Sequence record: OZ335964.1
Length of the DNA: 64,000 nucleotides
Strand: one strand, 5' to 3'
From: a phage
Both the position numbers and the translations under genes were made by a program. Below the pieces are notes generated by a model. The model saw only the letters and a list, made by a program, of their open reading frames with translations. It had not been told where the DNA came from and searched no databases. Shown piece after piece: positions 143 to 63,254 of the stretch. Position 1 is the first letter of the stretch. Each line of letters begins with the position of its first letter.

Positions 143-1189
143 ATGAAAATTCAAATTTTGGATGATGCTAAAGATACTATTAATCGGGGTATCAAAGCAT
201 CTGCTGGGTTTACTAAAAAACCAGATAATACAACATTAACCGCACAATTTCCGTCTGAACGAGCTAGCGGTAATGATACTTCTGGTATATACATAAATGA
301 CCTTTATAATAACGGCTTGTTGTTTACTGCCTATGATTATAAAGAGCGTGTTACCGGTTCTCTTCGAAATTTCAGAAACGAACATAGTACATTGCGTGGA
401 TTTGGTGCACAAGGAAAGATAAGCGACAAGGAATTTTATCAAACATCTTTTGATCGCGAGGCTGTTGCTAATATCCTACTTCCTCGTAGTCAATCCGATG
501 TTGACTCGGTGAGTCATAAGTTTAATGATGTGGGTGAATCTCTCGTTACACGTGGTGGTGGCACTATTTCTGGTGCGTTGTCTGCTATGGCATCAACCGC
601 CGTATTTGGTGGTTTGGAGAGTTTAACGGGTGGTTATCTTGCCGATAAAAACGAACAGATTTATAATACCGCTCGTAGCATGTATGCTGGCGCAGATCCT
701 AGAACTAAAAACTATGTTTGGCACTTAACACCACGTAGTATTGAAGACCTGCGCAATATATTGATTATCTATGAAACTTTTGTAGAATTGTCTTATGGTT
801 CCAGCGGTATTTCTAGCACAGCAAAGCAATTAAAAGCGGAAGTTGATGCATGGTATAAAAAGACAATTCTTTCTAAGACGGTTCCAGAAGGAGCGGATAC
901 TTCCGGTACTTTGTTTGAGGGCATAACAGACTTTTTGACCAACGTGACCACGGTATCGAATCCGACTATATGGATGATCTCTAACTTTGGTAAACGTTCT
1001 GCTTATGAAGGTCGTAGCGACGTTTTCGGTCCAGCGCAAATTACTAACGTAAGGCTTGACAAATCACCAGACGGTAAATTTGGTGGTTTGGCTATTTCTC
1101 CTAACTTGCCTAGTACCTTCGTTCTGGAAGTATCGTTCAGGGAGATTCTTACTCTTTCTCGCGGTACTGTGTTTGGGAGTTCATTATAA
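143..1189 (+). CDS. 48: baseplate tail-tube cap protein gp48
   Basis: 348 aa, + strand, stop overlaps next start (TAATG); size and position match T4 gene 48 upstream of 54 and alt. Confidence 0.55.
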   Translation: MKIQILDDAKDTINRGIKASAGFTKKPDNTTLTAQFPSERASGNDTSGIYINDLYNNGLLFTAYDYKERVTGSLRNFRNEHSTLRGFGAQGKISDKEFYQTSFDREAVANILLPRSQSDVDSVSHKFNDVGESLVTRGGGTISGALSAMASTAVFGGLESLTGGYLADKNEQIYNTARSMYAGADPRTKNYVWHLTPRSIEDLRNILIIYETFVELSYGSSGISSTAKQLKAEVDAWYKKTILSKTVPEGADTSGTLFEGITDFLTNVTTVSNPTIWMISNFGKRSAYEGRSDVFGPAQITNVRLDKSPDGKFGGLAISPNLPSTFVLEVSFREILTLSRGTVFGSSL

Positions 1190-2118
1190 TGTTTGATTTA
1201 AAAGATTTCAACGAACAAGCCGCAAATCTTGATTTTCAGCGTTCTAATCTATTTTCGGTGGCATTTGCCACCGTTCCTAGTAGCAAGACACAGCAAATTT
1301 TAGAAAATTTTGGTGGTGCTATTCATGATATTATACCAGGTAAATTAAATGATTATTTTGGTATCACAGAGGGTGATTATACCGATGCTGTAAAAAATTT
1401 GGCTATACATGGAGTGCGCAGAGCCGTTACATCGTCAGGTGTCAAAAAGTATCTTTTGGGTGCAATGTCATCCCGTGTAGTTCAATCTCTTTTGGGGCAA
1501 TTTGAAGTTGGTACATATGTCATGGATTGGTTCAACATGGCATATAAGACAAGCGGTTTGATGGTATATGCTGTTAAGGTTCCAGAAAACCGATTGAGTT
1601 ATGAAATGGACAGAAACCACAATGCGCCTAACATTAGAATTACTGGACGTGATTATGACCCGTTGATTCTTAGCTTTAGAATGGACGCTAGCGCGTCTAA
1701 TTACAGGGCGATGCAGGATTGGGTTAACTCTGTAGAAGACCCCGTTACAGGGCTTCGTGCGCTTCCTGTAGACGTTGAAGCAGATATTCAAGTTAACCTA
1801 CATAATCGCATGGGTGTACCTCACACTATCATGATGTTTAATGGTTGTGTTCCTGTTGGGGTTAGTGCACCTGAGTTGAGTTATGAAAACAACAACGAGA
1901 TCACTACATTCGACGTGACGTTTGCTTATAGGACAATGCAAGTTGGTGCTGTTGGTGAGCAAGCCGCTAGAGAATGGATTGAAGATAAGGCCATAAACCT
2001 TATTCAAAATACTATAGGTGAGGGTAAAACAGGTTCATTAACTTCTGCTGGTAGTGCATTATCTAGATTGCAGGGTGTTGGTGGTAGGGTAGTTAATACT
2101 ATCACTAGATTATTTTAA
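1189..2118 (+). CDS. 54: baseplate tail-tube initiator gp54
   Basis: 309 aa, translationally coupled to gene 48; synteny 48-54-alt; followed by strong hairpin terminator. Confidence 0.55.
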   Translation: MFDLKDFNEQAANLDFQRSNLFSVAFATVPSSKTQQILENFGGAIHDIIPGKLNDYFGITEGDYTDAVKNLAIHGVRRAVTSSGVKKYLLGAMSSRVVQSLLGQFEVGTYVMDWFNMAYKTSGLMVYAVKVPENRLSYEMDRNHNAPNIRITGRDYDPLILSFRMDASASNYRAMQDWVNSVEDPVTGLRALPVDVEADIQVNLHNRMGVPHTIMMFNGCVPVGVSAPELSYENNNEITTFDVTFAYRTMQVGAVGEQAAREWIEDKAINLIQNTIGEGKTGSLTSAGSALSRLQGVGGRVVNTITRLF

Positions 2119-2120
2119 TA

Positions 2121-2148
2121 CAAAAAGGGGGCAAATGCCCCCTTTTTT
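2121..2148. terminator. bidirectional rho-independent terminator
   Basis: GGGGGC-AAAT-GCCCCC hairpin flanked by A-run and T-run between convergent genes 54 (+) and lipoprotein (-). Confidence 0.7.
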
Positions 2149-2653
2149 AATTTAGCAGATCTTCACACTGTTTACGCAGTTTATGACGATATTCTTTAGA
2201 TTGCAGTAGTTGTACTTTTTCATAATCCCCTATTTCATATGCATTTGAGAGATCATCCTGATATGCTGCCTCTGTACCAATTCGGCAAATGTCGTATTGA
2301 CGGGCTTTTTTCAAATCTAATTGTTCTCTCTCAAATTCTTTTCTTCGTTTTTCTTCTCGCTCTTGATACTTTTTATTTTGATATTCGATGTTGCTCTTAA
2401 TCTCTGCAATTCGTTGCTGTGCTTCTTGTGGCAATCCTACACGCAAAGCGGCTTCATCTTTTTTCTGTAACAGGTCGATAACACAGTATTCTGGTTCTTG
2501 ATAAGTCTGATTACCATGTGGATGGTAGTACCAACGAGCGCAATGTTCTTCGATTGACTGTATAGAAGCCGTAGCCGTTCGATAGTCTTTAATATTAGCA
2601 CAACCAGTTAACATGAATACAGCCGCAAGTCCGATTGGTTTAATCATTTTCAT
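2147..2653 (-). CDS. predicted lipoprotein, unknown function
   Basis: N-terminus MKMIKPIGLAAVFMLTGC has a signal peptide with lipobox L-T-G-C; charged coiled-coil-like C-terminal half; start overlaps upstream stop (ATGA). Confidence 0.6.
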   Translation of the reverse strand: MKMIKPIGLAAVFMLTGCANIKDYRTATASIQSIEEHCARWYYHPHGNQTYQEPEYCVIDLLQKKDEAALRVGLPQEAQQRIAEIKSNIEYQNKKYQEREEKRRKEFEREQLDLKKARQYDICRIGTEAAYQDDLSNAYEIGDYEKVQLLQSKEYRHKLRKQCEDLLN

Positions 2654-3474
2654 TTAGTCACCTCACCGAAAATTGTAAATTGTCTACGATTCTCATCGCC
2701 GAAAGATTCTACTACGTCGTTTACCTTTATGCAAGTCCCGCGCGGTAAAATTACTTCACATTCGCAAGGATTCCATGCAATTGACCCAACAACAAAACCT
2801 TTATGATCTTTTACGTCAATTACCCATGATACATTACAAGAATGTTGCATCTTTCCGGTCATTGATTCATATCGATTCTCACAATAAAGGCTAGTGCTAT
2901 TTGAAAGCCAGCCTCCAAAGATGATCGGTGTCATGCTGGTCGACACAAAGTTTTTAAAGGTAAATTCCTTATCTTCAATAATACGCTCTATTGTCTGAAT
3001 GTCAAGATGTTGACCGCGATAAAGAGTACCGTTTAACTTTTCGGTTTTATCCATGACACAATCCATCAAATCGACGATCTCTGATATCTCATCGGTCATG
3101 TCTTCTTCCCCTAAGAGAGCACCATTTACCCATTCGTATTGTTCAGACACATAATCACAGATTGCATTATATTCTGCTGGGGTTATGTTGTTATGTTTGT
3201 AATGTTTGAACACATTATCTCCAAAGTCTTCAGAGTGTACTTCATACATCACATTAATGATTTTCTTGACAAATCCATAATCTTGTGTCTCGCGCTCAAG
3301 GAAGCGGATAACATTCACGTAATCATCAAAGTTAATCTGATCGCTGATCATCTCAGTGATCATGTAACCATTAATCCCCTCAATGTCATATGTTTCAATA
3401 TAATTGTCCATACGTTCCATCATTGATTCGCGTGATTCTTCCGAAAGACGAAAATCCTGTAATTTCTTGAACAT
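2650..3474 (-). CDS. ADP-ribosyltransferase-fold protein (Alt/Mod-like paralogue)
   Basis: 274 aa with R-S-E triad in order: TLYRGQ (Arg), FVSTSMT (STS), CECEVILPRG (ExE); same motif set as Alt next door. Confidence 0.55.
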   Translation of the reverse strand: MFKKLQDFRLSEESRESMMERMDNYIETYDIEGINGYMITEMISDQINFDDYVNVIRFLERETQDYGFVKKIINVMYEVHSEDFGDNVFKHYKHNNITPAEYNAICDYVSEQYEWVNGALLGEEDMTDEISEIVDLMDCVMDKTEKLNGTLYRGQHLDIQTIERIIEDKEFTFKNFVSTSMTPIIFGGWLSNSTSLYCENRYESMTGKMQHSCNVSWVIDVKDHKGFVVGSIAWNPCECEVILPRGTCIKVNDVVESFGDENRRQFTIFGEVTK

Positions 3475-3493
3475 TTTAAACCTCCCATATAAC

Positions 3494-3528
3494 AGAAAAC
3501 GGGGCTAGTATAAAACTAGTCCCCGTTT
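3494..3528 (-). terminator. rho-independent terminator downstream of alt
   Basis: 11-bp perfect stem ACGGGGCTAGT/ACTAGTCCCCGT followed on minus strand by T-rich tract. Confidence 0.6.
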
Positions 3529-3552
3529 GAGTCAACCATTATTTCTTAAAAA

Positions 3553-5604
3553 TTACATTTTAAATTTATCTGGCATAGCGTCTACAGATACCAGATCAGC
3601 GATAAGCTGACGTAGAGTTGCCTTATCTGCTTTCTTACGTTCGGTTTTAGCTTCGGTAATAAAGCTGGAGAAAGACAGGTCAGAAGCAGGTTTAACAACA
3701 CCTTCACGGATGAATGCATCACCGTCCGCGATCATCTCGCCAGATTCTTGTAATGCTGCCAGTTCATTTTTGTTCATAATATGTGCCTCAATGTAATAAG
3801 TTTCTTGTGAATCCGTCGATGCCGTAGCACGAGTTACCGTATCAAAGGATAACACAACACCGCGAGGAAGTAAAATCTCGCATTCTTTGTAAGCAAATGC
3901 TTTGTTACCTACTGGCAATACAGGGATGTTTTCCGCGCCAGCAATGGAGAAAGCAACATTAGCGCCACCTTCACCGCGAGATCCAGCCATAGAATCTACA
4001 CCAGCAACGGCACTAGCCACGTTTGCATTCCAGCCACCAAAAATGTTAGGTGCAAGGGAAGTGCTCACATAGTTTTTAAAGTAAAACGCTTTTTGCTTAC
4101 GTGCAGTTTCCCACATTTGAGACCGGAAGTCCATACCACGATACAGAATAGTACCAGGATCAAGTTTAACGCCATAGTTAGAGAAGGCATTATCCAGTGC
4201 ATCGCACATCTTGACCAATTCTTCTGGATCTGCGATGCCTTCAAACTCTTCCAGCTTACGGTCGGTTAGGAAGTTGTTCATATTGATGTATGCTGCATCG
4301 GCATATTCGCTCAACACAAAACCTTCCGCGCCAGGCAGATCAAGATCAATATCTGCCATCATTTCACCCATGTTGCTAGCAATTGCTTCAAACATACCGG
4401 AAGCAACATTACGTAGGGCATCGGTTTTAATCTGGGTGATATGACTACGCAGCATTTCAGCTTTTACATCTGCTGGCATAGACTGGTCTACTCGATCCAT
4501 TGCCAGTGCGGTGATCTTGTTTTCGAATACTTCCTCGCTCATGATTTCTTTTAAGCGTTTGATTGATGCTGCGATAACTTCCGCAGACAACGGATCATAT
4601 TGATCCTGAACTTTTACCAGTTCACTTACTGCGTATTTTGCATCGGCTTCGCTTTCAAAAATAGTACGCATGAAACCATAGCGAGTGATAATATCACTTG
4701 TCCAGTCATTCAGAGAACGGGCGGTTGAACGTTCTAAGGCTTGACGATCAATCAGAGTATTAAACTGTTTCTTAGGTTCGGCTTCGGTGATATCTTCTTC
4801 CGGTTTAAGATTAATTTTTTCTGGATGATTCACATAGTCGCTGTTATAGGTCGCTTGAGTTTTCAGCATTTCTTCTTTAGTCAAACGAGACTTAGCCGCT
4901 ACACGTTGTTCTGCTTCCGCGTTTCGTTCTTCTTCTGATGCAAGGCTAGCCGCATACGCTTCATCTTTAGTCAGAGATTCACCAGTAGCTTTAGATACCC
5001 AGCGATCACCTAAATCACTTTCTACTTTAGTGAACAGGGAATCATCAAGTTTAATCCCTTTAATCTTATCAATCGACATCCCGCGACGCTTGACAACAAC
5101 TAAAGCGATCTTTTTGCTGGTCATTACTTCCTGCTGGAATACTTCAAACTTAGGAGTACGACGCACCAAACGCTCTATAACGCGCTTAACCAGTTCGGTC
5201 TTACCTTTCATGCGGGATACGTTAAAACGGAACATAACAGCGTCTAATTGCGCTTTACGGGCTGTTTCCATAACCACATCAAAAGCACTTGCCATAACTG
5301 CAATCGGGTTATCGCCTAGACCATTTTTAAGCTGTACAATACGACCGCTTTTGTTCATCTCGCACAGTACAACATGTGCGGTCTTGTCACCCATACGAAT
5401 GATTTTAGGTGTTTTGTTGGTGAAGTTACAAAGACGGACAATCACATCTTTATCGCGTGTCTGTACTGCAAAAAGCTGTTTAGGGTTCTGCTTAGGCTTT
5501 AAGCACTGTACCGGAGCAATACTACCAAAGTTTTCTTCCTCTTCCGTCAACAGCCATTTCTCGAAAGATTCAATCATTAGATCGTCGATTTCTAAGTTAA
5601 ACAT
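3553..5604 (-). CDS. alt: ADP-ribosyltransferase Alt (packaged, modifies host RNA polymerase in T4)
   Basis: 683 aa (T4 Alt 682 aa); C-terminal ART motifs ILYRGM, YVSTSLA, YKECEILLPRG; synteny between 54 and 30. Confidence 0.8.
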   Translation of the reverse strand: MFNLEIDDLMIESFEKWLLTEEEENFGSIAPVQCLKPKQNPKQLFAVQTRDKDVIVRLCNFTNKTPKIIRMGDKTAHVVLCEMNKSGRIVQLKNGLGDNPIAVMASAFDVVMETARKAQLDAVMFRFNVSRMKGKTELVKRVIERLVRRTPKFEVFQQEVMTSKKIALVVVKRRGMSIDKIKGIKLDDSLFTKVESDLGDRWVSKATGESLTKDEAYAASLASEEERNAEAEQRVAAKSRLTKEEMLKTQATYNSDYVNHPEKINLKPEEDITEAEPKKQFNTLIDRQALERSTARSLNDWTSDIITRYGFMRTIFESEADAKYAVSELVKVQDQYDPLSAEVIAASIKRLKEIMSEEVFENKITALAMDRVDQSMPADVKAEMLRSHITQIKTDALRNVASGMFEAIASNMGEMMADIDLDLPGAEGFVLSEYADAAYINMNNFLTDRKLEEFEGIADPEELVKMCDALDNAFSNYGVKLDPGTILYRGMDFRSQMWETARKQKAFYFKNYVSTSLAPNIFGGWNANVASAVAGVDSMAGSRGEGGANVAFSIAGAENIPVLPVGNKAFAYKECEILLPRGVVLSFDTVTRATASTDSQETYYIEAHIMNKNELAALQESGEMIADGDAFIREGVVKPASDLSFSSFITEAKTERKKADKATLRQLIADLVSVDAMPDKFKM

Positions 5605-5645
5605 TTTATATCCTCTAGTTGATAACCTATAAACCTATATTTATG

Positions 5646-5673
5646 AAAAAAGGGGCTTAACGCCCCCTTTTTA
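5646..5673. terminator. hairpin terminator
   Basis: GGGGC-TTAAC-GCCCC hairpin with flanking A-run/T-run. Confidence 0.55.
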
Positions 5674-5886
5674 TTATAATGCACCATCAAGCAATTGCTC
5701 TAAGGTGTATCCTGAATAGTCTTTTTCAATCAGGATATATTTTCCTACTCGTTTAATCCAGCCACGCATTTCAACGTATTCTGCGTAGTTGATAGTGCGA
5801 GTTGTTCCATCTTCTAGCAAAGCAGTACCGATTTCGTTAATGCGGTCATAAGTTACGTCGGTGATGATGATTTCGATGTTAGCCAT
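5674..5886 (-). CDS. hypothetical small early protein
   Basis: 70 aa; preceded by promoter cassette and RBS AGGAG; begins MANIE like the 8047..8298 gene, whose first codons are part of the same cassette. Confidence 0.5.
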   Translation of the reverse strand: MANIEIIITDVTYDRINEIGTALLEDGTTRTINYAEYVEMRGWIKRVGKYILIEKDYSGYTLEQLLDGAL

Positions 5887-5922
5887 TTGATACTCCTTAG
5901 TAGTTCGTTTCGGTATGTGTGC

Positions 5923-5951
5923 ATTATAGGGGATCGATGATCCCCTGTCAA
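5923..5951 (-). promoter_or_regulatory. sigma70-type early promoter cassette
   Basis: Minus strand: TTGACA - 17 nt palindromic spacer GGGGATCATCGATCCCC - TATAAT, then conserved leader CCGAAACGAACT and RBS. Confidence 0.6.
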
Positions 5952-5958
5952 CAACTTT

Positions 5959-6477
5959 TTAGTTATTTTTTAATTGCTCATCTTGCAATAAAGCAATCAC
6001 ATGCTGGCGATGTTCTTCCGACTGAGGCACACCGAAAAAGTTTGTTTTGTAGAAATACTCTAATCGGTCTTCTCGTGTGCTCTCTTCCATCATGATCGCG
6101 GGTAGTCCGAGATTTCGGAAACGTCGCTTTTCTGCTGGCGTAAAATCGCTGTAATACAGCATAGAATCATCATTACCAGCAATGCTAAACTCATCCTTCA
6201 TGAAAGAGAATATTGCGTTTAAACGCTGTTTACCGTCCACGATTTCGATCTCATAGCGAGAGCCATCATCAATCTTAGCCATTGCGATAGCACCAACCGG
6301 AAAATCATTAATCAGGTTTTCGATAAACATACGTTTGTTTTCTGTGTCCCATACTAAAGGACGCTGATAATCTGGGTTCATGTTGATAAAGCCATCTTCT
6401 AGCCATGCTTCATAGACAGATATGACAAAGTTTTTAGTATTGGTATAGTAACGGCGTTTAGGCGTTAAACGGTTCAT
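5959..6477 (-). CDS. DUF262/ParB-like domain protein (GmrS N-terminal-domain-like)
   Basis: Motifs DYQRPLVW, FPVG and VDGKQRLNAI (DGQQR-like); start MNRLTPKRR chosen by RBS AGGAGA and coupling to upstream stop (track ORF extends to 6513). Confidence 0.6.
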   Translation of the reverse strand: MNRLTPKRRYYTNTKNFVISVYEAWLEDGFINMNPDYQRPLVWDTENKRMFIENLINDFPVGAIAMAKIDDGSRYEIEIVDGKQRLNAIFSFMKDEFSIAGNDDSMLYYSDFTPAEKRRFRNLGLPAIMMEESTREDRLEYFYKTNFFGVPQSEEHRQHVIALLQDEQLKNN

Positions 6478-6478
6478 G

Positions 6479-6811
6479 TTATAGTCTCCTGAATGGATCA
6501 TCACGTAAATCAATATCTTTTAAGAACTCATCCCATGAATGGCGGATATTGTTCTTAATTCTCCAGATAAGCGCAGGGATTGAACGCTCTCCCATCTGGA
6601 AGTAAGGATCATATGATCCGTATGCCCAATATGCTACTACAATTCCACAATCAGCGCAATAGTATTCTATTTCACTTGCTGGCGACCAAAGTCCATCAAT
6701 ATGATCGGTGATCTTGCTTTCGATGTTATGGCTATGGCAATCAGGGCAACGGATGCAATGACCTTGTTTATCGTAATTTGACGTTAGCGAATACTTAAAC
6801 AATCTCATCAT
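6479..6811 (-). CDS. Cys-rich zinc-ribbon protein
   Basis: 110 aa with CIRCPDC ... CADCG cysteine clusters; start overlaps upstream stop (ATGATGA). Confidence 0.5.
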   Translation of the reverse strand: MMRLFKYSLTSNYDKQGHCIRCPDCHSHNIESKITDHIDGLWSPASEIEYYCADCGIVVAYWAYGSYDPYFQMGERSIPALIWRIKNNIRHSWDEFLKDIDLRDDPFRRL

Positions 6812-7572
6812 AGATCCTTATTGGCTTCAAATACTGCCTTTGCGAATCCTCGCGGGGTAAGTGACCTGATAGTCTTTGTTCTGGTTCCTTTCCCGCCTAG
6901 CTTAGAATGCTGTTTACTGTACCCTTTCTCAATCGGCAACGGTTTCTTTTCTGGCATTATAAAGCCTTGTCCGGTCCATAAGCAAGTCTTTTTCGGGTAC
7001 ATATCACGGGCGGCAATATACTCAGGAAACGTAGGATGTATATCATCTTCCGGCAAATAACCGCCATATTCCCACGGGTGGAACATGTAATCAGGCTTAC
7101 GCCACATGCTAGAGATAACGCTTACAGGATTCTCTATCATGTAGGGAACTCCTAGCCATTCACCCAAATAAGCTGTTATTTTAGCTGCCCGTACATCATG
7201 AACTTGAATTAATGGTCCTTGCTCTCGTTTCTTTCGTTCAAAGTGTGCAGCGCCACTAACAGCTAAATTTGAACAGCTAGGAAACGCAAAGATCATATCC
7301 GGTTTGCCCCATTCAAGATCCATCGCCCTTTCCAACCAATCCAGATCTATCCATGAATTAACATAAGTTAAATTTGGGTGTTCAAATCGAGTGTTATACT
7401 TTTTATATGTTCCATGATCGGCATCATCAGCATTAAAGCAGATCACTTTATGACCTGCTTTAGCCCATTCTAGACCCATAATACCGGACCCATCGAATGT
7501 ACAAAATATAAGTTTACTTTCCGTGGTTTTCATGATAGCCATACTCTCTTTCTGCTTTGGTTCTAACTGCAA
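6808..7572 (-). CDS. SAM-dependent methyltransferase-like protein with C5-cytosine-MTase-type motifs
   Basis: 254 aa; FDGSGIMG (motif I FxGxG), FAFPSCS (motif IV Pro-Cys), MIENPVS (motif VI ENV-like) with canonical spacing; no obvious TRD or motifs VIII-X, so function uncertain. Confidence 0.45.
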   Translation of the reverse strand: MQLEPKQKESMAIMKTTESKLIFCTFDGSGIMGLEWAKAGHKVICFNADDADHGTYKKYNTRFEHPNLTYVNSWIDLDWLERAMDLEWGKPDMIFAFPSCSNLAVSGAAHFERKKREQGPLIQVHDVRAAKITAYLGEWLGVPYMIENPVSVISSMWRKPDYMFHPWEYGGYLPEDDIHPTFPEYIAARDMYPKKTCLWTGQGFIMPEKKPLPIEKGYSKQHSKLGGKGTRTKTIRSLTPRGFAKAVFEANKDL

Positions 7573-8050
7573 CGGCTTCTTCTAGTGTGTCGAAACACCC
7601 TAGATATTTTCTATCACCGCGTCGACCGCCGCCAATTCTAACTACCCATTTATTGTATTTGTTTTTATGTATTCCACTATGTCCGCTTGTATTCTTTTTA
7701 GACTTTGTTTGATTTCTCATGTTGTCGCGGTGTAGTTTAAGTTCAAAGTTAACCGCTCTATTATCTGTCTTAATGTGATTAATATGATCTACTTCATATC
7801 CTTCTGGTATAGGTCCATTGTGGATAATATAACATACTCGATGAACTTTGTAGTTAATAATTTTACCGTCAATTTTTATTGACGATTCAAGATAACGTCC
7901 ACCACTTCCTAGTGACCCGACCTCCTTTCCAGCCCATGCAGCATTCCATTGTTTTATTCTTGATGGGTGTATATCTGTTCTCTCCTTCCATGTAAGGATA
8001 CCAGTGTCAGGATCATAATTAAAGTATTTCTTCCAGTCTATATTGTTCAC
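7514..8050 (-). CDS. HNH homing endonuclease with AP2-like DNA-binding domain
   Basis: 178 aa; HNH_3-type motif VDHINHIKTDNRAVNFEL plus AP2-like SGHSGIHKNKYNKWVVRIGGGRRGDRKYLGCFDTLEEAVAVR. Confidence 0.75.
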   Translation of the reverse strand: MNNIDWKKYFNYDPDTGILTWKERTDIHPSRIKQWNAAWAGKEVGSLGSGGRYLESSIKIDGKIINYKVHRVCYIIHNGPIPEGYEVDHINHIKTDNRAVNFELKLHRDNMRNQTKSKKNTSGHSGIHKNKYNKWVVRIGGGRRGDRKYLGCFDTLEEAVAVRTKAEREYGYHENHGK

Positions 8051-12135: not shown

Positions 12136-12164
12136 ATTATAGGGGATCACCGATCCCCTGTCAA
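12136..12164 (-). promoter_or_regulatory. sigma70-type early promoter cassette
   Basis: TTGACA - 17 nt palindromic spacer GGGGATCGGTGATCCCC - TATAAT on minus strand. Confidence 0.6.
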
Positions 12165-59180: not shown

Positions 59181-60572
59181 TCAAATATAGTCTACTCGAT
59201 ACCGCGCACGGGTAACACCCACATATAATAACTGCATTGCCAATTCAAAGTCAACATTGTCTGTACACATGCAAGGAGTATACAGGAACACGCGGTCTAC
59301 GCTTATCCCTTGTGACTTATGAATGGTGCAAGCTGGTAATGCTTTTACATTCAAGAACATACGTTTCATCGTCCAGAAGGAATCCCAATCTGGTTTAAAT
59401 TTTGGATTCTCTTTCTTCATTTCGCGATATTGTCCGGCGACCGTATTCAGATAGATAGAGAAAATGTTCTTCTGACGTTGTTCTGTCAGAATGTTGATTT
59501 CTACTAAATCCGGTTTATCTGTAGTGATTCCGACTGCATCTAAACCGACTTTCTGATTTAGGATTTCTTTGTCTTCGTCATCATCGACGCTTTCCACTTT
59601 CAGAGTATAGCCTAAAACTGGTTGCGGATCTACCCCTGTGCAACGTAATGTAAATTCGCGCGGGATAACCTCTTTAACTCGGATCATCTCACCATTGTTA
59701 AAAATAACATTGGGAATCTTCTTCCCGCGTTCATCTCGCAGATATTCGATCAACGGTTCCTGAGTAACCAGAATTTCATCTACAATCACTGGTTCATCGG
59801 TGTTATAAACGCGCTTACGCACAATTTCATTGAGTTTTTCGACGCTCTTGTTAGTGTAGGCCAGAATACGGTTTTCCAACAAGTCTTCCGGCGTTTTAAC
59901 AGCTTCAAAATAATGTTTCATGAACTCTGGCAGCGTTGAGCTATGGAATACACCCTCGTTGTCGCACTGCTTTTCGAATACCCATTTACCGTTACGGACA
60001 GCAGTCGCCACATCAATTATTGGCGCATTAGATCGTTTAATCTCTGTAAGTTCTACATTCTGGAACCTTTCATCTGTGAAGAAAGGAGAGATCGACGTTG
60101 CACCGCTCGGATCAACTGGTCGTAACTGGTACAGATCACCCACGGCAATAATAACAATTCGACCGTTGATACTCTTCATGAGAATATCAAATAGTTTCTT
60201 ATCGACCATACTCGCTTCATCAACAATGATGATCTGAACATCATCTAGCTTAGGAGTATCTTTTTGTTCAAATACTTGAGTATCTTCATAGTTGGTTGGA
60301 TTTAGTCGCAGTAGTGCATGTAAAGTAAATGCTTGACGACCTACCGCCTTACTCAAAACTTTTTTAGCCTGGTGGGTAGGCGTTGCCAAAACCACACCAG
60401 TTACACCACGGCGGACCATTTCCTGGACAATGAATTTCATCATTGCGGTTTTACCAGTACCCGCCGCACCACGGACAGTTGTATGCTTCTTTTGTTCAAT
60501 GCGTTTCATTAGAACATCAAAAGCATGTTTTTGTCCGTCTGTCAACATATCGAAAGTTAATACTCTGCTCAT
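59181..60572 (-). CDS. dda: Dda DNA helicase (SF1B)
   Basis: 463 aa; FDMLTDGQKHAF, Walker A GAAGTGKT, ATPTHQAKKVLSK, IIIVDEASM match T4 Dda. Confidence 0.85.
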   Translation of the reverse strand: MSRVLTFDMLTDGQKHAFDVLMKRIEQKKHTTVRGAAGTGKTAMMKFIVQEMVRRGVTGVVLATPTHQAKKVLSKAVGRQAFTLHALLRLNPTNYEDTQVFEQKDTPKLDDVQIIIVDEASMVDKKLFDILMKSINGRIVIIAVGDLYQLRPVDPSGATSISPFFTDERFQNVELTEIKRSNAPIIDVATAVRNGKWVFEKQCDNEGVFHSSTLPEFMKHYFEAVKTPEDLLENRILAYTNKSVEKLNEIVRKRVYNTDEPVIVDEILVTQEPLIEYLRDERGKKIPNVIFNNGEMIRVKEVIPREFTLRCTGVDPQPVLGYTLKVESVDDDEDKEILNQKVGLDAVGITTDKPDLVEINILTEQRQKNIFSIYLNTVAGQYREMKKENPKFKPDWDSFWTMKRMFLNVKALPACTIHKSQGISVDRVFLYTPCMCTDNVDFELAMQLLYVGVTRARYRVDYI

Positions 60573-60886
60573 TATCCTAAAATCCTCACCTTGCGAACAC
60601 AGATAGTATTGAGTTCTCGCCGTACCCGTTCTTTTTCATATTCAGGAATTTTGTATTCTATACCATCCCGAACAATTTCAGAAGACCGGATTATACCAAA
60701 TTTTCGTTTAGGCACAACCTTGTATTTCGGTTCACCTGCCAATAGACTCTCACAATAATCTATCTGATCACACATTGACGCTAAAGCTGCATCATGTGTT
60801 TCGCAAGTTAGGACGCGACCTTTCGCGTCCACTGAGTATTGAAAGAATCCGTCTTTATCACGATAACATACAGCAAATACATGCAT
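60572..60886 (-). CDS. hypothetical protein
   Basis: 104 aa, coupled to dda (ATGA-type overlap). Confidence 0.5.
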   Translation of the reverse strand: MHVFAVCYRDKDGFFQYSVDAKGRVLTCETHDAALASMCDQIDYCESLLAGEPKYKVVPKRKFGIIRSSEIVRDGIEYKIPEYEKERVRRELNTICVRKVRILG

Positions 60887-61641
60887 TATAAACCTACCTT
60901 CGCTTTCATCAATTCAATCCACGACGCATCAATCGGAAGCCCGTATTTCACGCGTTCTTTTTGTGCTGGCGTTAAGTTCTCATACTTAGAAAGAGATTCA
61001 ATCAAAACGCTGGTATATTTTAGCACGATTTCGGTATTGTTTGCAATAGCCTTAAGTTTTTCCTCTTTCTTGTTGATTTCGCTAAGGGCTTGCTTGAGAT
61101 CTGCAATTTTCTGATAACGTTCTTCCATACGGAAGAGAGTATTTTTAATCGCTCGCTCGGCTGCCTCTGCTTTCTCCGGTTCGTTGTGCTTTTTGTGGCG
61201 CTCGATTGCTAATTTCTTTTCTTCGATTGCCATTTCCTGATTTTTGATGCGATTCTCGTTAAGTTCGATCCACTCTATGTACTTCGCACGTAGGGCAATT
61301 TCATCATCAGAAAGTTTACCGTTAGTTCCTAGTTCTTGGATCTCTTTAAGAGATTCGATAGTGTGATTACCACGGAAAGAATTGTATTTCAGTTTAACCG
61401 GAATCACATTTCCATCAACATAGCCCAGATTGCAATCAATGCGCTCTAAGGAGAGTCCATCATCACCTTCACCAAACTCCTCACCTGAATATGCGCAATG
61501 AGTCTGGCGATAGATGTTACGCACAGTGACTAAGCTCATAGAGAAGTCTTTGTTACGACGAGAAGCGCCAGCCATGATAGAGTTCAAACGGAAAACAACC
61601 AGCGCCAATTCTTCGTTAGATTTAAAAGCAAACAGTTTCAT
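60886..61641 (-). CDS. hypothetical protein (position of T4 srd)
   Basis: 251 aa; N-terminal Cys/His-containing region, C-terminal coiled coil; assignment by position only. Confidence 0.35.
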   Translation of the reverse strand: MKLFAFKSNEELALVVFRLNSIMAGASRRNKDFSMSLVTVRNIYRQTHCAYSGEEFGEGDDGLSLERIDCNLGYVDGNVIPVKLKYNSFRGNHTIESLKEIQELGTNGKLSDDEIALRAKYIEWIELNENRIKNQEMAIEEKKLAIERHKKHNEPEKAEAAERAIKNTLFRMEERYQKIADLKQALSEINKKEEKLKAIANNTEIVLKYTSVLIESLSKYENLTPAQKERVKYGLPIDASWIELMKAKVGL

Positions 61642-61702: not shown

Positions 61703-62206
61703 TTAAATTAAAGAAAATTTGTAAATCTCTATCAGGTCGCCATTGCACGCGTAAACTTCCTCGATCTCATCAAGGATCATGGTCGTCCCTGTCTTGTATA
61801 TGCACTCGCGCTCATCCGCCAACATAGCATACAAAGACAGTCGAGTAGTCGGATTGTCATACTCTTTAGACACCACTCGGTCTATAGCATGTTCGTAATA
61901 ATTCATGCAAGGCTTGGTAGGTTTTATTGCAATAATCTTTCCTGTTGCATAAACATCGGTTGCAAAGTCCTCTGCTGTTGATTGTAGTGGCGTAAAGCTC
62001 ATAGGACGCTCTACAACGAAAGAATCACCTACAATTAAGGTATCCAGCTTACGGCCTTCTCTTTTGCTCACACCGCGATACAAGGCTTCGTGATGCACTA
62101 ACCGTTCAGTCTTTTCAATCAATCCATTAAGGATCGACATATCGATATTTTCTTTAGAGTTCATCACTTCATCAATGATGTTAAGTTCTTCTGGTGTGAA
62201 TTGCAT
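61703..62206 (-). CDS. ADP-ribosyltransferase ModA/ModB-like
   Basis: 167 aa; ALYRGV (Arg), SFTP (S-T), ADEREC (ExE); position after dda as T4 modA/modB. Confidence 0.55.
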   Translation of the reverse strand: MQFTPEELNIIDEVMNSKENIDMSILNGLIEKTERLVHHEALYRGVSKREGRKLDTLIVGDSFVVERPMSFTPLQSTAEDFATDVYATGKIIAIKPTKPCMNYYEHAIDRVVSKEYDNPTTRLSLYAMLADERECIYKTGTTMILDEIEEVYACNGDLIEIYKFSLI

Positions 62207-62324: not shown

Positions 62325-63254
62325 ATGAACTATAAACGTATTTATGATAACCTGATTGAACGTGCTAAGACTAGAACTATCGACGGATATACAGAAAAGC
62401 ATCACATCATACCACGTTGTATGAATGGAAGCGATGATGATAGCAATCTAGTTAGACTCACCCCAGAGGAACATTACATTGCTCACCTTCTGTTAGTTAA
62501 GATTTACCCAGATAACAGTAAATTGGTTTATGCTGCAAATATGATGTGCGTTTCTTCTGATTCACATAATGGAGAAAGACAGTCAAATAAACGTCATGGT
62601 TGGTTGCGTAGAAAAATGGCAGAGGCACATAGTAAAAGAATCCGCGATAGAATGGAGAACGATCCTGAATATAGAGCTAAGGTTTCGGAATGGGCTAGAA
62701 AAATGGGTAAAGCCATGAAAGGAGTTAAGCGAGGACCGGAATTTAGCAGAAAGTTGGCAGAAAGAAACAGAAATACCGTGATGAAAGAAGAAACTAAACG
62801 TAAAATCGGGGAAGCCAACAAAGGAAGGAAACGTACAGAAGAATATAAAAGAAAACATAGTGAGCGGTATAAGGGTGAAGGTAATCCGATGTATGGTAAA
62901 CGAGGAAAGGAACATCCGGCATATGGTACTAAACCGTGGAACAACCAAACATCATTTGTTGAGCAGAAAGCATGGTGGCGGTTCGCTGGCATGTTCTATG
63001 ACTGGTATCAGATGGATATTGACCGTGGGAAACATAAACGCCACGGTCATAAAAGAATGCTTGATGAATTGGGTTTTGTTGGTTGGCGAGAAAAAGAGCC
63101 AGCCGCAGCAAGACGATCAATTGAAATGTTTGCTAAAGGCTGGAATCCTTATGAAGACCAAGAATGGTTAGATTATATTAATACCCGCTTTCCAAACGAC
63201 GATAGTTTTCCGCGTTCTTCAACATATACAAAACAAACAAATCCTTTGCAGTAA
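62325..63254 (+). CDS. HNH homing endonuclease with NUMOD3-like repeats
   Basis: 309 aa; EKHHIIPRCMNGSDDDSNLVRLTPEEHYIAH (HNH) and repeated basic HSKRIRDRM / KRKIGEANKGRK / HSERYKGEGNPMYGKRGKEH motifs; only + strand gene in this block. Confidence 0.7.
   Translation: MNYKRIYDNLIERAKTRTIDGYTEKHHIIPRCMNGSDDDSNLVRLTPEEHYIAHLLLVKIYPDNSKLVYAANMMCVSSDSHNGERQSNKRHGWLRRKMAEAHSKRIRDRMENDPEYRAKVSEWARKMGKAMKGVKRGPEFSRKLAERNRNTVMKEETKRKIGEANKGRKRTEEYKRKHSERYKGEGNPMYGKRGKEHPAYGTKPWNNQTSFVEQKAWWRFAGMFYDWYQMDIDRGKHKRHGHKRMLDELGFVGWREKEPAAARRSIEMFAKGWNPYEDQEWLDYINTRFPNDDSFPRSSTYTKQTNPLQ

Follow-up and report, generated by a model that had tools for sequence, protein, structure and literature searches.

The gene immediately downstream of alt in this phage, a Krischvirus (an RB49-like, T4-type coliphage), encodes a 274-aa protein that sequence comparison and structural modeling identify with high confidence as an R-S-E ADP-ribosyltransferase (ART). 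We consider it likely, from its sequence and predicted structure, that this gene specifies a competent Alt-type ART module, derived from an old copy of alt, that is made early in infection and is not packaged into the virion. An earlier note on this DNA had placed a second ART-fold gene directly downstream of alt, and in the window (the whole stretch of 64,000 nucleotides that was analyzed) both ORFs are indeed present on the minus strand, with the ART gene intact. The features of this locus are as follows.

2147..2653, minus strand: 168-aa predicted lipoprotein, with a signal peptide and an LTGC lipobox
2650..3474, minus strand: 274-aa stand-alone Alt-type R-S-E ADP-ribosyltransferase, equal to RB49p183
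3497..3536, minus strand: intergenic PeSL-type cassette that separates the 274-aa gene from alt, with a predicted promoter and stem-loop
3553..5604, minus strand: alt, encoding a full-length Alt-like ADP-ribosyltransferase of 683 aa
5638..5667, minus strand: region upstream of alt, with a GC hairpin and T-run followed by CATAAATA

The 274-aa gene is already annotated and published and is not a new discovery. Its counterpart RB49 ORF183c/RB49p183 (NP_891754; PHROG 15144), which is 99.3% identical and occupies the same position, differs from it in nothing material and is this very gene, carried by a sister isolate. The RefSeq entry for RB49p183 carries the note "similar to C-terminal part of T4 Alt protein," and Nolan et al. 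2006 (PMC1524935) had already counted the gene as a paralogue that arose by duplication of alt. In the literature that we searched, we found no expression, virion-proteome, enzymatic, or functional studies of it. On one side, the ORF is separated from alt by 78 bp, with both on the minus strand. On the other, its stop codon overlaps the start of the lipoprotein gene (ATGA), as read directly in the sequence. The lipoprotein, a member of a family without assigned function (PHROG 16112), is found beside the ART in all relatives examined, including a homologue at the same position in the distant relative L005. It is hypervariable, with 34% identity to its RB49 counterpart, while the adjoining ART is 99% identical. 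A PADLOC search returned no match for the 274-aa ART, the lipoprotein, or the Mod-type protein of this phage (Mod167).

As for the ART assignment, the 274-aa protein matches the Pfam profile PF03496 (ADPrib_exo_Tox) over positions 2–187 of 196 with a score of 58.2 bits (E = 9e-16), the curated threshold being 23.4 bits. The R / S-T-S / ExE triad reported in the earlier note is present and the catalytic Arg and Glu are in register: when the protein is aligned with Alt proteins (48 sequences, 47 of them relatives), R153, S178, S180, E238, and E240 never vary and T179 hardly does, with the ExE motif corresponding to E238-C-E240. The catalytic codons can be read in the DNA as CGC (3018..3016), TCG-ACC-AGC (2943..2935), GAA (2763..2761), and GAA (2757..2755). 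Since a sequence search of the PDB gave marginal matches only (E of 0.06 or worse), a fold search was needed. The AF2 model of the protein (pLDDT 90.6, pTM 0.87) matched Vis, C3bot, CDTa, iota Ia, and Certhrax when compared with the PDB using Foldseek (probability 1.0, E from 7e-11 to 1e-8), and phmmer aligned its YRG, STS, and ExE motifs with those of the Tre1-like 6dre_B. The protein thus shares its fold and catalytic motifs with the C3 exoenzyme, Vis, iota-toxin Ia, and Tre1 toxins, but it differs from them in its low identity (16 to 20%), its host-takeover context, and some 50 extra N-terminal helical residues that are common to Alt. We infer that it catalyzes NAD+-dependent ADP-ribosyl transfer and, because of its ExE motif, that it would be an arginine-directed mono-ADP-ribosyltransferase of the Alt/VIP2 (R-S-E) family.

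The closest kinship of the 274-aa protein is with Alt. The Alt of the window comprises an N-terminal domain, an ART module (residues ~400–610), and a C-terminal tail ending in ...MPDKFKM. In profile searches it matches PHROG 802 (E = 9e-181) and PF03496 (E = 2.4e-9), and it is 99% identical to RB49 alt and 27% identical to T4 Alt over the full length (E = 2e-61). The 274-aa protein corresponds to the C-terminal helical and ART module only, roughly Alt residues 330–610. It is 31% identical to T4 Alt residues 413–593 over 181 aa (BLASTP, E = 2e-22), it matches Alt PHROG 802 at positions 330–602 of 674 (E = 5.5e-45), and its model can be superposed in its entirety on the C-terminal region of the Alt model of Shigella phage SP18 (TMq 0.81, 297 columns). 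The N-terminal Alt domain (~330 aa) is absent, and so is the C-terminal tail with its conserved ...(M/L)PxKF end, the alignment stopping ~75 residues before the Alt C terminus. In precomputed Pfam listings, the 274-aa family carries PF03496 only, whereas the Alts carry PF03496 and PF26846 (Tevenvirinae_ADPRT). In T4 Alt, both termini are propeptides that are processed by gp21 in the prohead (PMC9026906). The 274-aa protein therefore resembles T4 Alt, a packaged NAD+:arginine mono-ADP-ribosyltransferase, in its module, in the register of its R / STS / ExE motifs, and in a locus lying between ligase-side accessory genes and gp54. It is unlike T4 Alt in lacking the N-terminal domain and the C-terminal tail, in having an early σ70-type promoter, and in forming a clade of its own.

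T4-like phages commonly carry an additional copy of alt downstream of the first. In Tequatrovirus PE37 (gp068/gp069) and Moonvirus KM16 (gp246/gp245), both members of the tandem are full length (685 to 707 aa). In T4, alt.-1/alt.-2 are 95 to 98% identical to the N terminus of the downstream alt copy of PE37 and are remnants of such a tandem duplicate. The arrangement in the window, with a second alt-derived gene right after alt and before gp54, is like that in these phages. However, in contrast to the full-length copies of PE37/KM16 and the N-terminal fragments of T4, what is found here is the C-terminal catalytic module alone, with its own promoter cassette. The suggestion in the earlier note that the history of this locus differs from that in T4 is thus borne out, the extra alt copy being cut to its catalytic module. 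In the scenario that we favor, the 274-aa gene would descend from an old extra alt copy at the same locus, which would have lost an N-terminal domain of ~330 residues and a C-terminal tail of ~75 residues.

The 274-aa gene is real and under purifying selection, with a dN/dS of 0.03 to 0.05. It is present in all 59 Krischvirus-type records, and its family is retained down to 42 to 48% identity. The order alt–ART–lipoprotein–gp54 is also that of the distant relative L005, whose ART and Alt show 44% and 46% identity, respectively. The family is small and well delimited, an exhaustive search showing scores that drop from 268 to 125 bits at its limit. A recent duplication of the resident alt was considered and rejected on the basis of neighbor-joining (NJ) analysis, in which the 274-aa clade is separate from the resident Alt clade (bootstrap 86% and 97 to 98%, respectively), and also of the scores of the protein, which are 87 bits against T4 Alt and 67 bits against the neighboring Alt. 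The clade's branching point deep among the Alt lineages has bootstraps of 1 to 20% (NJ only). There are weak hints that it belongs to a Tevenvirinae "downstream alt" lineage, to which it is sister in one NJ tree (bootstrap ≤20%) and to which the 274-aa protein shows identities of 29 to 30%, vs. 24 to 28% otherwise. A further hint is that P0007 was the best match from outside the 274-aa family.

The earlier note had also pointed to a third, Mod-like ART gene about 56 kb away, which we recovered in the following neighborhood.

59181..60572: 463-aa ORF, candidate Dda helicase, taken to be such from its position and helicase-like sequence
60572..60886: Y01A/dda.1, a neighbor in the Mod locus
60886..61641: srd-like gene adjoining mod, with 32% identity to T4 Srd (E = 2e-27)
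61703..62206, minus strand: Mod-type ADP-ribosyltransferase (Mod167, 167 aa), the only Mod homologue in the window

Mod167 is homologous to T4 ModB (BLASTP, 33% identity, E = 1.4e-9) and ModA (E = 3e-5), with R44, S70, E132, and E134 aligning with the catalytic residues of these proteins. It lies at the T4-syntenic dda–dda.1–srd–mod position, where there is one mod gene vs. two in T4. The idea that a paralogue sits beside alt instead of in a Mod pair consequently holds in part. There is an ART beside alt, but it is Alt-derived, and the Mod locus is at its T4 position.

Could the 274-aa gene nevertheless be a paralogue of the ModA/ModB lineage that moved next to alt? The protein is small, the three ARTs equal the number in T4, and the Mod locus of the window has one gene rather than two. 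However, when the 274-aa protein was compared with ModA, ModB, and Mod167 by BLASTP, the best E was above 1, which refutes this relocation at the sequence level, while the matches to T4 Alt and to the Alt profile given above make the protein clearly Alt-like. Moreover, PF03496 matches the 274-aa protein and Alt but not Mod167, and the gene adjoins alt outside the dda–srd–mod early cluster, so that we regard this origin as very improbable. It is scarcely credible that the gene is a functionless, decaying remnant of an alt duplication. Such a fate has a precedent in T4 alt.-1/alt.-2, which illustrate that downstream alt copies can break into fragments. The low dN/dS argues strongly against it, as do a reading frame that is intact in 59/59 related genomes, catalytic residues and 70 positions that are invariant among homologues down to 42% identity, a confident fold, and the presence of a dedicated promoter and a Shine–Dalgarno sequence (GGGAGG, 3486..3481).

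This promoter is part of a cassette in which a predicted early promoter, GTTGAC-N17-TATACT (3536..3507), overlaps a stem-loop (3528..3497) with a T-run after it. The predicted RNA fold of the cassette has an energy of −20.6 kcal/mol (z = −2.5). The motif is one of 13 GTTGAC-N16-18-TAYAMT sites in the window, all of which are on the minus (early) strand, whereas 0.14 would be expected. In a generic σ70 scan of the region, 11 sites were found vs. 10.6 expected in shuffles, only the phage-specific GTTGAC motif being enriched. The same cassette is kept in L005, with changes in the stem bases. It displays the σ70 consensus promoter, the A/T-rich upstream region, and the intergenic G-run/C-run stem-loop by which promoter-early stem-loops (PeSLs) were defined in RB49/phi1, where promoter and terminator activities were measured in reporter assays on other PeSLs (PMC2839356). 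Both the promoter and the terminator of this cassette are predicted from sequence. The resident alt is organized differently, with a late-type ATAAATA motif rather than an early-type promoter. Upstream of it, a terminator scan predicted that a hairpin (5667..5652) and its T-run terminate the preceding gene, and CATAAATA at 5645..5638 resembles the T4-type late promoter TATAAATA, as which it probably functions. The alt gene of L005 has the same upstream layout, a hairpin plus AATAAATA.

From the loss of the termini that are propeptides in T4 Alt, together with the σ70-type early promoter/PeSL, we infer that the 274-aa enzyme is not packaged. Instead, the injected genome would direct its synthesis within the first minutes of infection, and the enzyme would then use NAD+ to ADP-ribosylate one or more host proteins in the cytoplasm. 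The resident full-length Alt would be a late product that enters the virion and is delivered by injection. The timing of the 274-aa enzyme would be like that of the early ModA/ModB of T4, in a phage that has one Mod. The analogy that we propose with ModA/ModB is a functional one, between small stand-alone R-S-E ARTs made early from the infecting genome, as the 274-aa protein has no detectable sequence similarity to them and is encoded at another locus.

A competing explanation is that the protein is a second packaged and injected ART. Late transcripts of alt would read through the hairpin into its gene, and a capsid-targeting-like N-terminal peptide would direct the protein to the prohead. There it would be cleaved after L-S-E(12), to be delivered with the DNA in the manner of Alt and the internal proteins. 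Its first 12 residues, MFKKLQDFRLSE, loosely resemble the N termini of T4 IPII/IPIII (MKTYQEFIAE) and IPI (MKTFKEF) and end in (L/I)-x-E, which is the gp21 cleavage type (cleavage logic in PMC9026906), and the gene lies directly 3' of a late-type alt. Late synthesis of the protein is conceivable, since the late alt transcript could extend into the gene. However, the N-terminal motif is found only in the closest members of the family (that of the window and P0002) and not in P0003–P0006 or P0009. Profile alignments set the N terminus of the family (residues ~8–36) opposite Alt ~310–350, which suggests homology to an internal region of Alt, and in the AF2 model residues 12–28 form a confidently predicted helix belonging to the fold. 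We found no similar N termini elsewhere in the window, nor in 45 kb of RB49 sequence surrounding the 57B gene, the place of ipI in T4. Since, in addition, a strong hairpin with a T-run separates alt from the 274-aa gene, which has its own early promoter, we retain a capsid-targeting sequence, whose likeness to T4 IP propeptides does not extend across the family, as an unlikely alternative.

If the 274-aa enzyme is an early, unpackaged Alt derivative, as we favor, it is plausible that its target is different, as the earlier note had surmised. More tentatively, it might be an active early ART whose substrate is other than the classical RNA polymerase alpha and which replaces the missing second Mod. 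The region after STS in C3-like ARTs contributes to NAD and substrate contacts. In the 274-aa family, which is a distinct clade, this segment (183–217, PIIFGGWLSNSTSLYCENRY...NVSW) is almost invariant and short, unlike the long, variable segment of Alt proteins. On the other hand, T4 Alt modifies many proteins, so that overlapping targets are equally possible, and AF2 confidence is lowest in this very segment (pLDDT 77 to 79). Were RNA polymerase alpha not the substrate, possible but speculative candidates would be another host protein or a host defense component, or else the activity may be NAD-capped-RNA transfer, for which ModB provides a precedent (10.1101/2021.06.04.446905). That an early, unpackaged Alt derivative with its own substrate stands in for a second Mod is therefore a possibility that we hold with less than even confidence.

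The practical value of the finding is modest; the gene has been annotated before, its fold and motifs are conventional, and the view of ART mechanism is left unchanged. Its interest is biological. With its three ADP-ribosyltransferases, T4 is the textbook example of how a phage reprograms transcription and translation in its host. If our interpretation is correct, RB49-type phages would reach three ARTs by another route, with a packaged Alt, an early derivative of the Alt module, and a single Mod. Should the derivative also have its own substrate, this would amount to a convergent re-creation, from a different ancestral gene, of a three-ART, two-wave program of host takeover. Under our interpretation, the gene would offer a convenient natural experiment on how the N- and C-terminal parts of Alt contribute, for example, to packaging vs. 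catalysis or targeting, and on how the target specificity of ARTs diverges after duplication.

Positions 2000..6000 of the window, used as a megablast query, match 59 phage records with 90-99% identity. Every one is an RB49-like T4-type coliphage (genus Krischvirus), RB49, JK32 and Whisky among them. The plus-strand baseplate genes gp48 and gp54 open the window, followed by accessory genes on the minus strand.

Genes of the window considered here, with coordinates and strand.
1189..2118, plus: gp54, 86% identical to RB49 gp54
2147..2653, minus: predicted lipoprotein, 168 aa, beginning MKMIKPIGLAAVFMLTGC; start ATG overlapping with the stop of ART (ATGA)
2650..3474, minus: 274-aa ADP-ribosyltransferase (ART), from the ORF list, 78 bp downstream of alt
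3553..5604, minus: alt, 683 aa, from the ORF list
5959..6513, minus: GmrSD_N (DUF262-type) domain protein, 184 aa, E=6e-20
7514..8050, minus: HNH_3 endonuclease, 178 aa, E=7e-15
61703..62206, minus: Mod167, the 167-aa Mod homologue
62325..63254, plus: NUMOD3-motif ORF, 309 aa, E=9.5e-7, with an HNH-like EKHHIIPR...EEH segment

The second ART gene that an earlier note had placed downstream of alt is confirmed by ORF coordinates, Pfam, the R-S-E triad in alignments and the predicted fold. The 274-aa protein scores 58.2 bits with PF03496 (ADP-ribosyltransferase exoenzyme; cutoff 23.4), a model that the resident Alt (the product of the window's own alt) also matches, and belongs to PHROGs family 15144 ("ADP-ribosyltransferase", E=3e-197). 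Alignment to Alt proteins shows no variation at R153, S178, S180, E238 or E240 and almost none at T179, which puts the catalytic Arg and Glu in register; the codons for R153, S178-T179-S180, E238 and E240 were checked directly in the DNA. An AlphaFold2 model built from a 48-sequence alignment (mean pLDDT 90.6, pTM 0.87) retrieves Vis, C3bot1/2, CDTa, iota toxin Ia, Certhrax and Plx2a from the PDB with Foldseek (probability 1.0, E 7e-11 to 1e-8). Among predicted viral structures, the C-terminal part of Shigella phage SP18 Alt superposes with the whole model (TMq 0.81, 297 columns). Since the ExE motif in R-S-E ARTs goes with arginine as acceptor, the same acceptor is predicted here.

The 274-aa protein is an Alt-type module rather than a Mod, since BLASTP matches it to T4 Alt 413-593 (31% identity, 181 aa, E=2e-22) and to the resident Alt (37% identity, 109 aa, E=4e-16) but to none of ModA, ModB and Mod167. 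These sequence comparisons contradict a relocated Mod as its origin. Residues 8-268 align with positions 330-602 of the 674-position PHROGs Alt profile (E=5.5e-45). Compared with full-length Alt, the protein lacks the first ~330 residues and the last ~75, including the conserved ...MPxKF end; in precomputed Pfam lists, its family carries PF03496 alone, whereas full-length Alts carry PF03496 and PF26846. Residues 183-217, which follow STS and have the lowest confidence in the model, are near-invariant within the family, unlike in Alt, and may reflect a distinct, conserved substrate.

Distribution, synteny, phylogeny and dN/dS together indicate an old gene kept by selection. Six family members (272-288 aa), the most distant at ~42% identity, came from a word-indexed search of 5.8 billion proteins. 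HMMER, run exhaustively over 1.84 billion cluster representatives, recovered just three from the family (425, 422 and 268 bits), below which scores drop to at most 125 bits, the level of full-length Alts and large polyvalent proteins. By tblastn, 59 records hold a copy at 60% identity or more, which equals the number with the locus. A more distant member (P0005, 44% identical) lies on L005, a metagenomic T4-like contig, where alt (668 aa), ART (275 aa), an overlapping 159-aa lipoprotein gene, gp54 and gp48 follow in the window's order. Because identity to L005 is 44% for ART and 46% for Alt, against 77-79% for gp54 and gp48, both ARTs are fast-evolving at similar rates. Neighbor-joining on the ART module groups the 274-aa family as one clade (bootstrap 86%), apart from that of the resident Alts (window, L005 and P0014; 97-98%), with no resolution at deeper nodes. 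Comparisons among Krischvirus give dN/dS values of 0.03-0.05 (ART) and 0.03-0.06 (alt); these values and the invariant catalytic residues contradict a decaying remnant.

The two genes also carry different predicted promoters. The 78-bp spacer between them contains ...AATAATG GTTGACT-N17-TATACT..., with a stem-loop, AACGGGG(A)CUAGU/ACUAGCCCCGUU (-20.6 kcal/mol), overlapping the promoter spacer and -10 element, then a T-run and the Shine-Dalgarno sequence GGGAGG. The window has 13 matches to GTTGAC-N16-18-TAYAMT, against 0.14 expected, always on the minus strand (lowest coordinate per match, i.e., the -10 end).

GTTGAC early-promoter motifs (motif match, minus strand).
3507, 5923, 12136, 13073, 17900, 18221, 23763, 28626, 29009, 33052, 33608, 46883, 55402

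A GGGG...CCCC palindrome fills the spacer in about half of these, and GTTGACAGGGGATCGGYGATCCCCTATAMT is near-identical at 12136, 13073 and 46883. Judged by its sequence, the alt-ART cassette is a PeSL (promoter-early stem-loop), a predicted promoter/terminator as described for RB49 and phi1, in which other PeSLs are strong σ70 promoters and terminators (PMC2839356). It is kept in L005 with changed stem bases. Upstream of alt, a terminator hairpin is followed by CATAAATA, and the equivalent position in L005 has AATAAATA; both resemble a T4-type late promoter, and RB49-type late promoters tolerate first-position variation (PMC1524935). The ART coding sequence also contains a near-consensus σ70 site (TTGACA-16-TATTAT, 11/12; 3005..2978, minus strand) ~325 bp before the first codon of the lipoprotein gene; it may serve that gene as an internal promoter or have arisen by chance.

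In T4, the prohead core contains ~40 copies of Alt, which gp21 trims at both termini (PMC9958956; PMC9026906). The resident Alt would be such a late-made, packaged and injected enzyme. The 274-aa protein, because packaging-associated regions are absent and an early promoter is present, would instead be synthesized de novo early and act in the cytoplasm. We considered that it too might be packaged, since its N-terminus, MFKKLQDFRLSE, resembles T4 IP propeptides. However, this resemblance is not conserved across the family, a confident helix spans residues 12-28 in the model, and in profile alignments the N-terminal positions fall opposite Alt residues ~310-350.

Duplication of alt recurs in T4-like phages. 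RB49ORF183c, 44RRORF188c and T4 alt.-1/alt.-2 were listed as paralogous duplications of alt, and 44RRORF187c as a full-length duplicate (Nolan et al. 2006, PMC1524935). RefSeq labels the RB49 gene [quoted passage not shown] and, for T4, notes that alt.-1 and alt.-2 duplicate the first part of alt. Two full-length alt genes stand in tandem in Tequatrovirus PE37 and in Moonvirus KM16. By sequence, the upstream PE37 copy is the counterpart of T4's functional Alt (70% identity). The N-terminus of the downstream copy (L010, PE37, 2747..4804) is 95% and 98% identical to alt.-1 and alt.-2 (L004, T4, 4066..4451), so T4 lost most of its second alt gene quite recently. The downstream copies group together with support (90%, neighbor-joining); in one tree the 274-aa family is weakly drawn to their clade, without bootstrap support.

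The third, Mod-like ART is borne out too: BLASTP gives Mod167 33% identity to ModB (E=1.4e-9) and 23% to ModA (E=3e-5), with Mod catalytic residues lining up with its R44, S70, E132 and E134. Its neighbors are a Srd homologue (E=2e-27), a Y01A/dda.1 protein and a 463-aa ORF that, from position and sequence, we take to be a putative Dda. This is the T4 gene order, and the Mod locus is therefore syntenic with that of T4, with one gene rather than two. Directly adjoining mod on the opposite strand, the NUMOD3 ORF is probably a homing endonuclease in place of T4's second mod gene.

The lipoprotein gene, always downstream of ART (also in L005), is hypervariable: its product shares 76% identity with that of JK32 and 34% with that of RB49, against 99% for the adjacent ART and Alt of RB49. 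Such a pattern suggests that alleles are replaced under diversifying pressure. The protein has no Pfam or PADLOC match, and possibly has an envelope or superinfection-exclusion function. gp54 is 86% identical to its RB49 counterpart, against 99% for the alt and ART genes, and megablast coverage to most relatives begins at ~2582; these sequence comparisons show mosaicism at the locus, with a recombination boundary close to the lipoprotein gene. Upstream of alt, the HNH_3 gene is inserted between a methyltransferase-like gene and small ORFs, at a site that in RB49 holds just one small ORF of 246 bp, and its product is likely a mobile homing endonuclease differing among isolates. Two genes upstream of alt, the GmrSD_N gene encodes a phage protein related to the N-terminal domain of a restriction enzyme that targets modified DNA.

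Together, an intact ART gene beside alt is real, ordinary and already on record. What is added here is its exact domain correspondence to Alt, its separate-clade status with conserved synteny and strong purifying selection, a predicted PeSL early promoter set against the late-type motif of alt, and a link between this locus, tandem alt pairs and the T4 relics.
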